Virus record (IMG/VR): IMGVR_UViG_3300014043_000004
Location: 38,612-102,611 of that record
Origin: a virus
Taxonomy: Duplodnaviria > Caudoviricetes
Length of the DNA stretch: 64,000 nucleotides
Direction: 5' to 3' (one strand)
The position numbers and the translations under genes were made by a program. Shown piece by piece: positions 38,826 through 64,000 of this stretch. The notes under the pieces are model-generated. The model was not told the DNA's origin. It searched no databases and saw only the letters and a list, made by a program, of their open reading frames with translations. Numbering within the stretch: the first letter of the stretch is position 1; every line of letters begins with the position of its first letter.

Positions 38826-41800
38826 TTAAAAGCTAAATAACGGTGTATCATCGTGTACGTCGTTGTCAGCATCCCAATATTTCTAACTGAACAACGGCAA
38901 CTCGAAGAGTTCAACCTTTTTGTTTTCTTCTTTTGCAGCGGCCACCTTAACCTAGAACAACTCTTCTCTGTATATCATAACCATACACATGGCTATCACA
39001 CGGTCTACGTTTCTTACACCGTCATTTTCTATAAGTTCTTCTATAAGCGGTTCACTGTATATTCTTTCTAGATTAGGGTGTCCTGGTTCGTATTCTTCCA
39101 TTAGCCATTCGAGAATCAAACCTTCTCCGTATGCCCTAATCGCTTTTGTCATATGACAACCCTTACGACGCTATACTCTACTGTCTTTAAAGACTTCTGT
39201 TATAATCTTATCGGGTTGATCCGCCAGCAGGTAGTCGCAATGTTTGTTTGTGAAGTAAGGGTAAATACCCTTACGTTCATTCTCAAACAAAAGTCGTGCA
39301 TTATAAAATATTAATAGTTTACGCACGTTTTCATAATATTCTTCAGCAGTATCTGGTCTACCAGTATATTCAGCTACAATTACGTCGTTCCAGGCTTCTC
39401 CGGCTTTGACTCTCTTAAATATGAAAGTAGATCCTAAGGAATTGGTAAACGACTCATCGTGGTCATCAATTGTGTTATCGTAGAGCTTTTTATCTCTACT
39501 TCTACATGTCCCCATGTAGTTCAGCGTACATCATCACCTTTAGGTGTCAAGCACTCTTGGGAGGATTATATTTATTCACCTCCTACGCGTTACACTGTCT
39601 TCTAGCCTTTCGCAATCCAGAAGATTAGCACGGTGTTGTCTGTTCTAGATTTTCACCGTTTTTGCTCGATTTTAGACCCGCTGGTCTGTTAACGGGTCAC
39701 AGTTGTGAGTCAAGATGTTGCGACACATATAAGTATGTGTATCGCATTCGAAGTTATATACCGTACCGGTATACAAAGATTCTTCAATATTTTCTATTTT
39801 TATATACACCCTGTTCCCATCAAACTGTATTTTTGATTTTGACGAGTCTGTAGGAATAGACAGTTTTAATACTTTTTGCTTCCTACTTTCATATATTGTA
39901 GTAGATACCAGTTTTAAGTTATCGCATCTGGCAATGTTTATTCGGTAAGATAACAAAGAGTTTTTTGTAGGTTTTTGATGCACCACAATGCTATTCCTTA
40001 TTTGCAATCCGAATAAAATATCCTAGACGTCTTCCAGTAGCTCTAAGTTTACACTTGTAAAGTTAACCCTTACTTTTCCTCTATCGTAGAATACAGAACC
40101 GTCCGAATCCAAATAACCTTGCATAAATGCAAGTTTATAATCTTCATGTAAGTTCTTAAACCACTCGGGAATTCGTTTTTTATACGCAGTTTTGCCAAAC
40201 GTTTCATTTAGCCAAATTGCTAATTCTTTGTGAGTAAACCTACGCGTATTTTCTCTAGTTTTATGAACGTGAACAGTCTTTCTGCCGAACAGGTCTTGTA
40301 TTAAATCGTCGTAAAAAGATGCGAATTCATATTCATCTTTGCCTATTGACAAATATATATCGTATGAATTTTTGTTTATATTTACAAAACCGTCTCCTAT
40401 AAATAATCCGATAAAATAACAAAACTTTGCAAAACTAGTAGCAGTATGGAATTGTTTCCAGCCGGGAATTTGTCCGTTGGTTTTATAATATCTGTTTGGT
40501 ATATCCAACCAATCGGACTACTACACATCTTTCATTTTAACAAAACCTTTGTCTTTAATCCAAATAGGATGTTCTCCGGTAAATGTTGTTGTTCTATACG
40601 AGCCATATGGTTTTAGTTTATAAATTGGCTCATCACATTTTTCGTATCTCTATAAATTTCGTATGTCGACAAACTGTCCGTCTTTGTTCACTAATTTATC
40701 TCCTAAAGCCACGTCTTCAACGTTGACTAATCCACGCTAAGTCTAGACTTTTTCGCCAGGCGTAAGACAACCCCCAATGTATAGTCCAAATGGGGGATCG
40801 GGGATTGGGTATTCCCAGATAACTACTGATCCTCCTGGTTTGTCATCTTTCTTTAAATGATATGTTGTTATATCCCCAGATTTCTTTTCGACGGCTTGCA
40901 CTTTACCGTCACCGTCCCAACTAAGATCTACTATGTGTTTCATGTTTTTAATCTTCGTGTTGGTTCTAATTTTAGTAAGCTGATCCATTAGGAGTTTCCT
41001 GGGGAATATATTTTTACCTAATTCCAATACAGCTTCCTATGGTTTAAGTGGACGCTCTGATATAAATCTATCTATAGATGTCTATGTCGCGCCACCGTCT
41101 TTAATTTCATTACGCTATTTGATAAGTTCCTCTATTGCTTGTTCTTTAAGACTGTTGCCGTCTTTATCCATGAACAAGTTGCTCCATGATGGTACAAAGA
41201 ATCCACATTCCGTCTATTCTTGTCCGTCATCCCATATGTTCGGGAAACTAAGTACGTTAAACGCTTTTGGATTGTAGAATATATTCTTTAGACCATCGAA
41301 AGAACCACCTTCAGTACCACCAGTACCGAATAAACAAAGTAGACCAAAGGCGACACCGTCATCAGTTTCTACAGCAGGTTGTTCAATACGCCAAGCTGTC
41401 TCCAGATTTGGGAATTTACCACCCTCTTCAAACAGTACTAATTTACCACGAGTACCACGAAGACGTTCTGGATCATTCTTCAGCGTAATACCTGTAATGC
41501 TAGAAAGATAACCTTGTTCTGTTTGTTTACCGAATTCATCAGTTATCTTATAACCAGACACGCGCTCCATACGAGTAGAAGTTAGACGTTGTTTTGACCA
41601 AGCTGTATGTTTGTCTACGAAGTCCATAATCTACCAAGCTTTGGTAAGGAGCCCATCACCTACAAGGAACTTCTGTTCGGAAGCAACTGCGAAATTCTTA
41701 GACCCTGGTATGAGCTCGTAGTTTCTAACCAGCATTGACGCACCTTTAAAGCTGTATCCTCTTTGTCTACACTTAAGCGTAGCCATATGTTTTCCTTGGT

Positions 41801-42149
41801 TTTCTGCTTCTTCTATAGCGTTGAAATAATAATAATCATAGTCCCAGAAATCTGGAAAGTTAAGAACACGTTCACGTTTTTTACGAGTATTGCCGTACCT
41901 ATCTACGTATTCTTTTTCTTCCAACTTCATGATAGGACTGTAGTTTAAGTAAAAATAATGGTATCCTGTTATAGCATCCCCATCAGGAGCAACGTAACCA
42001 TTTAAGCATCTGTTTGTTTCCTGCTCCCAAAACTATATATAATCGGTAGTACCTCTGGGAGCGAGTGTATAACAACCGTGTTCCTAGAAGAACAATGCGC
42101 TCTATCTGAACTTTGAACTGTTGTATATCTTTTTGTTAAAGTCTACCAT
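38826..42149 (-). CDS. terL: Terminase large subunit, interrupted by an intein and a group I intron (exons 42149-39692 and 39466-38826; ~676 aa mature)
   Basis: Walker A-like KCRQRGYS, Walker B LVLFEEGG, GTGG coupling motif; nuclease motif GGCDPYDHD restored after splicing; C-terminal NVDRVIA. Confidence 0.93.
39467..39691 (-). mobile_element. Group I intron (225 nt, ORF-less) in terL
   Basis: Contains in-frame TAA/TGA; 5' exon ends in U, intron ends in G; P1 GACCCGU/GCGGGUC, P3 UCGAGCA/UGCUUGA, P4 ACGGUG/CACCGU, P7 GCGUA/UACGC, P8 CACC/GGUG, P9 CUACAUG/CAUGUAG; removal gives T+AT = Tyr (CDPYDHDES). Confidence 0.9.
39702..40769 (-). mobile_element. Intein with LAGLIDADG homing endonuclease (356 aa) in terL
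   Basis: Starts CLTPGEKV, block B TGEHPIW, FIGLFIGDG and FMQGYLDSDG motifs, ends VYNFECDTHTYMCRNILTHN followed by Cys+1. Confidence 0.93.
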
Positions 42150-42159
42150 ATTAAATCAA

Positions 42160-42720
42160 TTACTCTGCTGGGATATCAAAGTGCATCTTTTCTGGGTAAC
42201 CAGCAGAAATATCGTAATTAAAACAATCTTCTTTTGTGTTAAGATTATTAATCTCTACAAGATGCCTTTCTGTAACTGCGTAGCATTCCATAGCATAAAG
42301 CTCAATAGCAGCAATAAGGTTCTTGAAGATATTAATATCTGCTGTATATGGTGTATTATCAAACCACACAGTATATGTAGTCTTACCGGCTGCTTCTAAG
42401 ACAGACATGCTGTTTACAAGACCTACTCTCGTAGCTTTGTCCATCCAAGCTTTCTTACCGTTTACGTAGAAACAGTTTACTTCATCGGAAGCATCGTATT
42501 CTTTCTGGGCCTTTATTACAGTCTGTTTAATGTCCCAGTCTGAAGGGTTGCCTTTGATGGCACTGCACAAGCATTCACAGTCAGGAGCGTCTTCACGCTG
42601 GGACTCCTCCTCAGTTGGAATATAATCTCTTACCGAGAACATAACTCTCCAGTCCTCCCTAATGTTGTCTACACAATAGAGATTGTCGATTTCTGATTTT
42701 TTACATTTAATCCAATACAT
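42160..42720 (-). CDS. Tail-fibre-associated protein (DUF4376-like)
   Basis: YDASDEVNCFYVNG..WMDKATRVGL...IELYAMECYAVTERHL...YDISAGYPE pattern; follows fibre genes. Confidence 0.7.
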   Translation of the reverse strand: MYWIKCKKSEIDNLYCVDNIREDWRVMFSVRDYIPTEEESQREDAPDCECLCSAIKGNPSDWDIKQTVIKAQKEYDASDEVNCFYVNGKKAWMDKATRVGLVNSMSVLEAAGKTTYTVWFDNTPYTADINIFKNLIAAIELYAMECYAVTERHLVEINNLNTKEDCFNYDISAGYPEKMHFDIPAE

Positions 42721-42808
42721 ACTAGCTTATATTTTATCTTTCACCAAGAGGCGAAGAATAGCTCAAGTTACATGTTCCATAGGGTTTACCTATAACACAG
42801 TCAACAAA

Positions 42809-42951
42809 AGTAACTGAGAACTAATATTAGAATTGGTATTAGAAGGATCATTATTGACATTCAAGTAACTGAGACTGCTATTAGCATTGGAACTATTGTA
42901 GGACTGATTGGCTACATTGCTAGTAGTCTCATTGACATTGCCATTGGAAGT
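42809..42951 (-). repeat. DGR template repeat (TR)
   Basis: 143-nt ungapped match to 43120-43262; all 38 mismatches fall on sense-strand adenines of this copy; AAT-rich. Confidence 0.95.
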
Positions 42952-43091
42952 ATGTGCTTTCGCACACACTTCACATGACACCTACCAGCTAGCCTAAAAC
43001 GTCTCCAATAGCATAATCTCTTATCAAACACCTCTAACTCTCAATAACATTAGCTTGAGCTATCCTTTATCTCTCTATTAAAACTAATTAA

Positions 43092-46064
43092 TTAAATCTC
43101 TGTATAATTTCCTTTGTAGAGCAACCGAGAACCAACATAAGAACCGGCAGCAGAAGGACCACCAGGGACAACCAAGCAACCGAGACCGCCATAAGCATTG
43201 GAACCACCGCAGGACCGACGGGCCACATAGCCAGCAGCCTCATAGACATAGCCATCGGAAGCGAATCCTGTTGTATAATTGCTGTCTGAATGAACCTCAT
43301 TTGGAATCATGTCTCCGTATTGACCAAGAACCATCTTTCCGATACAGTTACTACTTGTAGTACCAGCCGTAGCAGATCTTACGGTAGTTCCGTCGATGTC
43401 CATAATCTTAATGTCGCCTGATGAGCTGGTCGTTTCAATGTTGTCAACCCACTCATACAGGTCGCCCCACCAGTTCTCAAGTCCCCAGAAGTTGATACTC
43501 GTAGAAGTACTGTTACTTGCACTAGAACCTCCATCTACACTAGCAGAAGTATCATTAATGCCTTTTGCATTACACATTCCTGTAGTCTTAGGATAGTTGC
43601 TAGAACCATAACCTACAACACTTTGATCGTCTGTAGTACCAAGCCAACCATAACCAAGCAGAGCCATTATACAGTGTGCTTCGTATGTCACAATCTGATA
43701 ACCGTTACCTCTTGCTCTTGCGTAAGTCTTAAAGTTTGCCTGACTTACATTGACTGTTGGTGTAACTCCGCTTCTACTATATACCATGTTGCTACTATTA
43801 TATGCTTCATAACAACCAATGAATGTATCACCTTCCCAGTGATTCCAACCAGTCTGTGCACCAGTACCAGCATCCATTGTAAAGCTTATCTGATATTTGT
43901 CTGTAGCAAGCATGTCTACTTTCCACCAGAACTCAGGCAGCTTCATGAATACATCATAGCTACTTGATACACTTGAACCATCAACAAACAGTGCTTTATT
44001 ACTTCTGCTAATCTCTTTTACCTACAGAGAACCGTTACTTAACCCTGTAGAACCATACAGCTTAGTATTACTGTGGATTCTATGGATAACGCTGTTTATA
44101 TCATCATTATCCTTTGCAGGAGTATCAATCTCTATCATACTCGCAGCAGCTGCTGAAGGGTTAGTTTGATTGATGATATAGCTTGTTACCGTAGCCATAG
44201 GAATGAGAGTAGCGTCCATGTTTACTGTAGCGTCTTTACTTACTGTAAGCGTTGATACACTTAGCGTATGTATAGAGCATGTAAGTGTGTATGTACCATT
44301 AGGTAATACTGCTTGTGCACTACCGTTACTGTCTGTAACTATGTTGGTTGATGTGCTACCACTTGTAAGTGTTATACCTATACCTTCTACAGATGATTCA
44401 TCTGTCGTAGTGATATTGAATGTAATTAGGTTGTTACGTACTGGACGAACCGTATATCCGCACCTGCGGCTGCCGCTGGCCTGAGGAGTCATACCCGAAC
44501 TGCTGAAACCCATACTATAGGCGTACCCAGCCGAAATTAACGATGCACTCAAGTAGATGCCGTTCGTGCCGCGGTACTGAAGTATCGTACTATCGTACTA
44601 ACCGCCGGCGGGGAAGAACGTGTAGATAGAATGGTCACTCTTCTTCATGAACTTCCGACCTGCCACGCCCGTACCGTTGTAGTCAGCCACCCACTCATAG
44701 TCGGTGTTGTCGTACAATTCCTTGAAGTCCTCTTTAGTAGGTAAGTTCCAAGGTGCTCCTAACCTAGCAAGTGCTATATCATGTACACTGTCTGTAGTAG
44801 GAATGTTTGCTGTTAAAGCCTTACCTGGAGTATTGTTATAATTAGCATCTGAGAAATTATATCCTTCTCCCTCATTATGACCATCTATGTTACCCCAAGA
44901 TATATAAGTACCCCAATCAGTCTCTTCACCAATAGAGTACTCGCCAGTAGTAGCATCTTTTATAATATTACCAGTAGCCCATTTAGTGCCACTTGGAAGA
45001 CCAAGATCGACATATCCTCCTGCAACTTCAAATACGATATCGACACTCTTAGATGTTGTGTCAACCCAGTCTTTAGTAATAGAGTCAGGTATTTTATATC
45101 CTTCAGGTACTTCTGACGTAACCTCAATCGTATAATTTACTCCATAAGGAATCTTCATAGACTCCCCATCAGACAGCGTACCAAGAGAAGTAGAACCGTT
45201 GTATATAGTTACTTCTTGTCCTGAGAGATCTGTATTGTTCTCATCATCTTCAGCTAATGCGAAGTTAACTGTAAGAACTTCTGTCTGATAGAGTACATCA
45301 ATATATTTTACTCCGGTTGTCACCTTACTTACAGTAGACGAATAACCAGAGATATTTGTTATTGTAACTTCCTATGAAACATCAATATCTGTACCGAACG
45401 GAACGATTATTGAAGAACTGTTAGCATACTGTGCGTTATTATATGTAACCTTAGCGTTTGCTATATCAGTCTTGTCTGACTGATTACTGTCTATAACAAC
45501 TCCCCACTGATCTGCTTTATACTCAATATTGCGAGTAACTGTAGCACCCAACCCTAAGTTCTCTATACTAGCAATACTGCTAGGAGCAAGGTACTTAGAC
45601 ATATTACTTGTACCTGCAGCAACACTTATAGAGTATGATTTAAGAGGAGCAAGACCAGTAAAGCTAAGCTGTTGTCCTGCAAACGTCTTAGATTCAACTG
45701 TTTCGCTATCTGTAGTATTAGTAAGCGTAACAATTGCACCGTTTAAATCCGTACTACTTACAAGACTAGGATCACCTGTATAAGCGGTTCTCACAAGAGT
45801 CTGCAAGTTAACATTAATGGTACCCCCAAAGTCAGCAGCTTCGCCAGCTGGTACTTTCCACGTACCATCCTTTGCAAGGAACGTACCGTCATCAGTACCT
45901 GTACCTAATGCAGATTTAACGTTTACAGAAGTTAGGATTTCCTCCTTAATAGTAGCTACATTTTTATTCTCAACATTGCTAAGTTCGGACAATCGAGTTC
46001 TTGCGGTAGTATCTTTAATATTTAATATAGTTCCACTAGGAATTCTAACTTTAGATATTTCCAT
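43092..46064 (-). CDS. DGR-targeted tail fibre / receptor-binding protein (990 aa, 3 TAG)
   Basis: Four fragments in one frame joined by TAG only; Ig-like segments, YVDLGLPSGTKWA...GYTVRPV domain, and C-terminal GLENWWGDLYEWVD...GSRL domain. Confidence 0.88.
43120..43262 (-). repeat. DGR variable repeat (VR) at 3' end of the receptor-binding protein gene
   Basis: Encodes ASDGYVYEAAGYVARRSCGG...YVGSRL, the C-terminus of a C-type-lectin-like domain; differs from TR only at TR adenines. Confidence 0.95.
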
Positions 46065-63506: not shown

Positions 63507-64000
63507 CTGTTAGAAAGAGTAGCACACATCAGTGAAAACCTGTATAAGTTGTGCCCGTGCTTTGAACACTAGAGCCTGAAGAGTAGGTGTTGGCAGCTGG
63601 AAATAGACAGCAAATTTAATGGCATCAATGCTCAAACCTCCACGTGGTGATGCTGGACGCAATAAACAGAGTAGTTATATACTTTTATCAATGTGCGACT
63701 AATTGGGCAAGCCTTAACACGGAGCTCTCATGTTGACCATGAGGTGTTGATGTGTTCGGGCATTTAAAAAACTCAATATAAAATATCCATTAAAGTGAGG
63801 GCTGCCAGCAGTGTGAAAGTCCATGGATTTCCAAGATGTTGAGGACGCCAGTTTCTTATCTTTTCAGTTCCATCAAGGCAATAATACCATATACCATATA
63901 AGGTATTACCGTTTGCGGATATTAGATAAGTTTTAGGCGTAAAACACATGTCTGCAGAAGCAGATTATTATCATAGTCAAATTCGTTGAAGTGTCTGTTT

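Follow-up and report, generated by a model that had tools for sequence, protein, structure and literature searches.

A 64,000-nt stretch of DNA from a crAss-like phage of a sheep-rumen microbiome (run SRR948119, project PRJNA214227), here called the window, carries what is very probably a diversity-generating retroelement (DGR) without the accessory gene avd that lost its reverse transcriptase (RT) through a 1,323-bp deletion and persists as a remnant with a frozen variable repeat (VR). The window covers bases 38612-102611 of the 102,611-bp virus record IMGVR_UViG_3300014043_000004. Its template repeat (TR) and VR are both present, the closed genome encodes no RT, nine closely related genomes (siblings) contain the missing segment together with its RT gene, and these siblings have been diversified recently. 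Most probably, the locus therefore represents a copy of a known system and was disabled recently.

Template and variable repeats in a genome without a reverse transcriptase

The minus strand of the window contains a 142-nt direct repeat, the two copies (42809-42950 and 43120-43261) being 311 nt apart. The copies differ at 37 positions, at each of which the downstream copy has an adenine and the upstream copy another base (27 A>G, 6 A>T, and 4 A>C), and are identical at all 96 non-adenine positions. The probability that 37 of 37 mismatches land on the 46 adenines is 6e-26 (hypergeometric). An additional A>G at 42951/43262 extends the pair to 143 nt and 38 mismatches. Because the mismatches are confined to the adenines of one copy, the downstream copy is identified as the DGR template repeat and the upstream copy as the variable repeat, differing at TR adenines only, as expected of a DGR. 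An initial annotation, made from the sequence alone, had described an intact 143-nt TR/VR pair with 38 mismatches exclusively at TR adenines, and the repeat alignment bears out this description in full. The genome contains a single TR and a single VR; no second copy of either was found anywhere in it. A 37-nt inverted repeat, variable between siblings, links the downstream flanks of the VR and the TR.

The VR lies near the 3' end of a gene for a tail or receptor-binding protein, the open reading frame (ORF) of which is open only when TAG is read as glutamine. The protein matches phrog_5302 ('tail protein') and phrog_14959. Its last 352 aa were modeled with AlphaFold (AF2; pLDDT 69.5, pTM 0.76), and the top PDB matches of the model in a Foldseek search are DGR variable proteins, namely TaqVP (5vf4; E 3e-7, probability 1.0) and Mtd, followed by weak matches to TvpA (E 0.1) and then to FGE-type lectin folds. 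Judging from this model, the VR is located at the 3' end of a gene for a ligand-binding, C-type-lectin/FGE-like fold. TaqVP, the best structural match, is also the sole PDB sequence match to the target protein, a non-significant one (E 0.7). The two proteins share only about 14% identity, and TaqVP differs further in being a bacterial rather than a phage tail protein and in lacking the 640-aa N-terminal fibre part of the target. In the middle of the target gene, a 600-nt block (44400-45000, minus strand) diverges by 30-45% from siblings with about 95% identity elsewhere and probably represents a swapped domain near a CarboxypepD_reg-like region, independent of the DGR-written tip.

No RT could be found. 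A PF00078 search of the full 102,611-bp record yielded no RT candidate, and a scan for YxDD/GxxxSQ motifs in six frames, with all stops read through, detected eight [YF]xDD motifs, none in an RT context. A hidden Markov model (HMM) that was trained on 17 DGR RTs from distantly related loci and applied, with all filters off, to the six frames of the full record gave a best score of -0.1 bits, and tblastn of 17 related RTs against the full record gave nothing below E 0.5. Thus, no DGR-clade RT (GxxxSQ, YxDD) is encoded together with the TR, and the locus is a DGR remnant, not a complete DGR. The lack of an RT that the initial annotation reported for the 64 kb, including under TAG read-through, thereby extends to the whole closed genome, the HMM search proposed there having been run with stops read through. 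Neither is there an accessory gene (avd or HRDC), as that annotation had likewise stated: no ORF fits the target-TR or the TR-RT interval, in the window or in the siblings. The avd gene is absent in about 26% of DGRs (PMC5758913), and most of the DGRs found in Zeta crAss-like phages also lack it (PMC12386605).

The record is flagged 'linear', and its ends share GTGTCTGTT (window 63990-64000, genome 1-10). An independent assembly, L045, runs from genome position 102610 directly into position 1 via a 9-nt overlap. Because this assembly reads through both ends, the genome is a closed circle of about 102.6 kb from which no sequence is missing. Its size is to be compared with 101,152 and 102,267 bp for RT-encoding siblings; the sizes agree once an intein gain and the RT loss are counted.

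Deletion of the reverse transcriptase gene relative to nine siblings

The fate of the RT became apparent from a comparison with L034, an 11-kb contig that was reached through the 186-aa protein encoded next to the TR and that is 94-98% identical to the window in the flanking genes. Positions 1-583 of L034 correspond to window 43298-42715, and L034 from 1900 onward corresponds to the window from 42721 downward; the 1.3 kb in between is missing from the window. At L034:633-1889, this segment encodes a 418-aa RT with GNYTSQYF and RYCDD motifs (PF00078, E 2e-18) and six in-frame TAG codons. As delimited by blastn and alignment, the missing segment is L034 584-1906, that is, 1,323 bp or 441 codons, between ...TAGTATGTAT and ...TTTATGAAT. 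It comprises the last 50 nt of the TR-RT spacer, the RT gene, an 11-nt gap, and the first two codons of the next gene (Table 1). The comparison with relatives suggested in the initial annotation thus reveals a precise scar, which that annotation had listed, in combination with a monomorphic VR, as the mark of a dead remnant. Very recent RT loss, one of the options which that annotation kept open, was a live one.

Including L034, nine RT-encoding siblings were identified, eight of them through exact-protein look-ups (L038, L040, L041, L050, L051, L052, L059, and L061). They originate from at least eight other sequencing runs or assemblies and are about 92-98% identical in the neighbouring genes. 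All nine share the same layout, in which the target gene with the VR is followed by an intergenic spacer, the TR, a 143-nt spacer, the RT, an 11-nt gap, the 186-aa gene, and terL, and none of them encodes avd. The window TR is identical over 142 of 142 nt to the TRs of L034, L038, L040, and L041, and the TRs of the remaining five siblings differ from it at one to three positions. A search of viral_contigs and metagenome_contigs with the TR pattern retrieved L034 and L035 only, and these two represent a single sibling.

The gene downstream of the scar was affected by the deletion. Its product starts with MYW in the window and with MNW in the ten full-length variants of the protein cluster that were read; the MYW start is confined to the window lineage. 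In the RT-encoding siblings, a 26-codon upstream ORF (MYQYEKSKLMMNVEASADYETILKSI; L034:578-658) overlaps the RT start codon, and the ATG-TAT of this ORF serves, in the deletion variant, as the first two codons of the 186-aa gene. The initial annotation had placed a DUF4376-like gene within 90 nt of the TR, followed by terL. The distance (88 nt) and the position of terL are correct, but the resemblance of the 186-aa protein to DUF4376 amounts to a sub-threshold Pfam match (E 0.07, 14 bits; cut-off 25).

Two other assemblies (L036 and L037) contain the RT-less arrangement as well, with 100% identity to the window across 8.5 kb, and it is hence not an assembler artefact. The exact deletion junction was not found in viral_contigs. 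The event appears to have been a loss rather than a gain of the RT, because the adenine-only pattern of the VR requires an RT and all the relatives possess one.

Table 1. Positions of the DGR remnant and adjacent features in the window
Feature	Position	Strand	Description
DGR target gene, 990-aa tail/receptor-binding protein	43092..46064	(-)	three in-frame TAG; C-terminal C-type-lectin-fold domain (predicted) with the VR
VR	43120..43262	(-)	38 of 47 TR adenines changed; ends 25 nt short of the target-gene stop
Intergenic spacer from target stop to TR	42952..43091	(-)	as in four RT-encoding siblings except one extra T; no avd
TR	42809..42951	(-)	adenine-rich (47 A), non-coding
Retained 5' two-thirds of the TR-to-RT spacer	42715..42808	(-)	94 of 143 nt; hairpin at 42742-42753; from alignments to nine RT-encoding siblings
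Deletion junction	42714..42715	(-)	1,323 bp of the siblings missing; flanked by imperfect TATG(T/A)AT repeats
186-aa gene	42160..42720	(-)	downstream of the scar; first codons ATG TAT derived from a short ORF that lay upstream, in the former spacer
terL in two reading frames	39672-42149 and 38826-39515	(-)	first part with LAGLIDADG intein, second the C-terminal part; context, outside the DGR

In the siblings, the DGR has been active recently. L038 and L040 show four differences over 6,409 nt, and L034 and L038 show 20 over 6,461 nt; all of these, in both comparisons, fall on TR-adenine positions of the VR. It is this confinement of the differences to VR adenine sites that indicates recent activity. 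In L050, L051, and L052, the TR has two or three point changes, and the same non-adenine changes are present in the respective VRs. There are no non-adenine TR/VR mismatches in any of the siblings, and all show a similar excess of A>G. The RT-encoding siblings thus show the VR variation expected from ongoing or very recent mutagenic homing; the RT-less genome is known from one sample.

Taken together with the siblings, the locus can be accounted for as follows. The ancestor, like the living siblings, would have transcribed the TR along with the 143-nt structured spacer, and a 418-aa RT, its gene containing TAG codons, would have reverse-transcribed the TR RNA with adenine-specific errors. The resulting complementary DNA would have replaced the VR at the tip of the lectin-fold tail protein. 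Such mutagenic homing would explain the 38 adenine-only differences as well as the perfect identity at all other positions, and this identity suggests that the last homing event was recent on the scale of the divergence of the lineage. One deletion between the imperfect TATG(T/A)AT repeats would then have eliminated the RT along with the 3' third of the spacer, joining the upstream ATG-TAT to codon 3 of the 186-aa gene with the frame kept. The phage presumably remained viable, given that a complete circular genome was assembled. On its own, it would be unable to diversify the VR, so that the receptor-binding tip would be frozen and the TR would be a relic.

State of the retained sequences and alternative readings

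In the RT-encoding siblings, the 3' 90 nt of the TR-RT spacer is invariant (9/9). The spacer contains a hairpin, CACC/UGCC-UCUU-GGUG/GGCA, with two compensatory pairs, which is kept in relatives whose RTs are about 60% identical and is followed in these relatives by a conserved single-stranded tract, AAAGATAAAGTATGGACTAGTA (motif set: L034:490-632 and its equivalents in L038, L050, L052, L006, L009, L016, L019, and L026). The hairpin and the tract together make up a candidate RT recognition or priming element. The predicted fold of the spacer RNA of siblings, a closed multi-hairpin domain, is better than that of shuffled sequences (z -2.9 and -2.5); the window, which keeps the 5' part of this domain and lacks its 3' half, gives z -0.9. 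When the whole spacer was analyzed with RNAalifold, only the 4-bp core hairpin was supported; the long closing stem of the single-sequence folds has no covariation backing, the distant relatives not aligning there.

The retained part of the spacer has also changed. Against a background of about 1.5% for window-specific changes outside a hypervariable block of the target gene, six such transitions (42726, 42727, 42728, 42732, 42752, and 42755) are found within 30 nt beside the scar. Another five window-specific changes occur in the 186-aa gene, within its first 120 nt. Five of the six transitions are inside the sibling-invariant stretch, one of them at an otherwise invariant G, and the sixth is three bases 5' of that stretch. 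Four of these transitions are G>A changes shortly before the ATG of the 186-aa gene. Such an excess would not be expected from drift alone; it may reflect a re-tuned translation start of the 186-aa gene, a recombination patch, or lost constraint. The pattern points to relaxed or redirected selection on the spacer remnant and, with the RT gone, the cassette appears to be inactive at present.

On the other side of the TR, a small GC hairpin with a GAAA loop (GUGCGAAAGCAC; 42953-42966, minus strand) stands directly 5' of the TR and shows no variation among the siblings; the DGR RNA may include it. The TR/VR homology stops abruptly, without a GC-rich initiation of mutagenic homing (IMH) element. 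The DNA of the VR 3' flank, which does not vary among four siblings and hardly differs in the others, folds no better than shuffled sequences (z +0.56), with no significant hairpin or cruciform.

Several observations weigh against a simple RT-deletion remnant. The TR has no substitutions, and the VR has no non-adenine mismatch. No window-specific substitution and one inserted T are found in the 311 nt that extend from the end of the VR to that of the TR, where about four to five lineage-specific changes would be expected at the background rate. An undecayed TR/VR block implies either that the deletion is very recent or that the TR has remained under constraint, which would fit its use in trans. 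The six scar-side substitutions fit poorly here, as they suggest that time has passed, or else adaptation or an acquired recombination patch. Furthermore, SRR948119 is the only run from which the RT-less form is known, and the second assembly probably represents the same sample.

These observations bear most directly on the possibility that the locus is a recipient-only DGR, the VR of which is rewritten in trans by the TR RNA and RT of an RT-encoding sibling during co-infection. We consider this improbable. In its favor, four RT-encoding siblings match the window exactly in the TR, the VR-TR spacer, and the VR 3' flank, there are no non-adenine mismatches and no lineage-specific substitution in the 311 nt, and a BPP-1 phage with avd, TR, and brt deleted has been diversified from a donor in trans (PMC3240598; PMC5758913). 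However, among the RT contigs of the cluster that were checked for their sample, none comes from SRR948119, and the conserved spacer motif has decayed in the window lineage, the TR RNA of which does not look maintained. There is likewise a small chance that the RT-less phage is a free rider, which would save the cost of the RT gene and have its tail tip re-diversified upon co-infection with RT-encoding siblings. Free riding would explain why an undecayed TR/VR block adjoins a scar carrying six substitutions.

Far less likely is the reading preferred in the initial annotation, namely, a non-autonomous DGR whose own TR RNA is copied by an RT that belongs either to the host bacterium or to an unrelated element residing alongside. 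The TR is indeed intact, and DGRs are able to act on remote targets (PMC5758913). But the RT-side part of the TR RNA is one-third deleted, the remnant is mutated in and beside conserved positions, and the locus, as the deletion scar shows, had been autonomous until recently. Handa et al. are said to have found in 2018 that the cognate RT of BPP-1 primes in this RT-side part of the TR RNA. A scan with the sibling RT across one genome per prokaryote species produced matches of at most 48% identity, mostly to stray contigs of metagenome-assembled genomes. Given the scar, the damaged spacer, and the lack of a close RT relative in the reference prokaryotes, RT borrowing is unsupported.

Least credible of all is an RT that is hidden (in another code, a split gene, or a missing contig end) or a deletion produced by the assembly: the 'linear' flag and the TAG sense codons of the late genes, which conceal ORFs from standard gene callers, would be compatible with it, but the six-frame searches with read-through of all stops found nothing, the genome closes on itself in another assembly at a size consistent with that of the siblings, the identical junction occurs in at least two and probably three assemblies, and an imperfect repeat of 7 nt is unable to collapse an assembly graph at k=127.

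Genome context, related systems, and significance

When TAG is read as a sense codon, the longest ORF of the genome increases from 647 to 5,827 aa, and late genes become joined. This pattern of late-gene TAG readthrough is typical of recoded crAss-like phages, and, among named phages, cr131_1, cr7_1, cr130_1, and a Bohxovirus (Crassvirales, Darmviridae) are the closest. Among GenBank phages, megablast matches were confined to terL/portal, at about 80%, with nothing matching the TR region. Despite the use of TAG as a sense codon in late genes, ARAGORN predicted no suppressor tRNA bearing the anticodon CTA in the whole genome. The only tRNAs predicted were those for Glu, Met, Arg, and Thr, none of them within the window, along with a permuted tmRNA at genome 7120-7429 (tag GDVNIVDYTGLKEAA).

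Downstream of the TR, the 186-aa gene is followed by terL and portal. The terL gene is split between two frames in every genome covering that part, and in the window these are about 156 nt apart (39515 to 39672). Its intein is polymorphic: the 1,066-bp insert (window 39701-40767) is lacking in L034 and L038, in which the N-terminal terL ORF is 469 aa long, and L050 has a 1,044-aa terL ORF with the LAGLIDADG domain.

Complete and fragmentary DGR cassettes, including ones with deleted or fragmented RT genes, have been described in crAss-like phages (PMC11054128, PMC12386605). The locus resembles the known DGRs of these phages (LMMB, PMC7290462; Epsilon, PMC11054128; Zeta, PMC12386605) in that the target is a tail-fibre or receptor-binding protein with the VR in a C-terminal lectin fold, the TR is located between the target and the RT, avd is mostly absent, and some of the RT genes contain amber codons. 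It differs from them as follows. The loss is resolved to the base pair against near-identical, recently diversifying RT-encoding siblings; the TR/VR pair is still perfect, not decayed; and the phage is closest to the Darmviridae named above and comes from a sheep-rumen project. With the BPP-1 DGR (mtd-VR, avd, TR, Sp, brt), the locus shares the adenine-specific flow of information from TR to VR, a lectin-fold receptor-binding target, with Mtd among the top structural matches, and, in the siblings, a TR-RT spacer of about 140 nt; unlike BPP-1, the window has no avd, RT, GC-rich IMH, or significant hairpin/cruciform downstream of the VR.

DGR cassettes without an RT are often viewed as mysteries or as evidence for trans-acting RTs. 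For one such case, the near-identical siblings resolve the matter: a natural RT knockout, mapped at base-pair level, within a complete phage genome. What is added to the known examples is the base-pair scar, a closed genome that excludes a hidden RT, sibling controls that have diversified recently, and a conserved spacer motif. Alongside it stand siblings that differ from one another over 6.4 kb at DGR-written positions only. The pair of genotypes with and without the RT offers a ready comparison for the worth of a DGR to a crAss-like phage in the rumen and is also suited to asking whether a co-infecting relative diversifies an RT-less phage.

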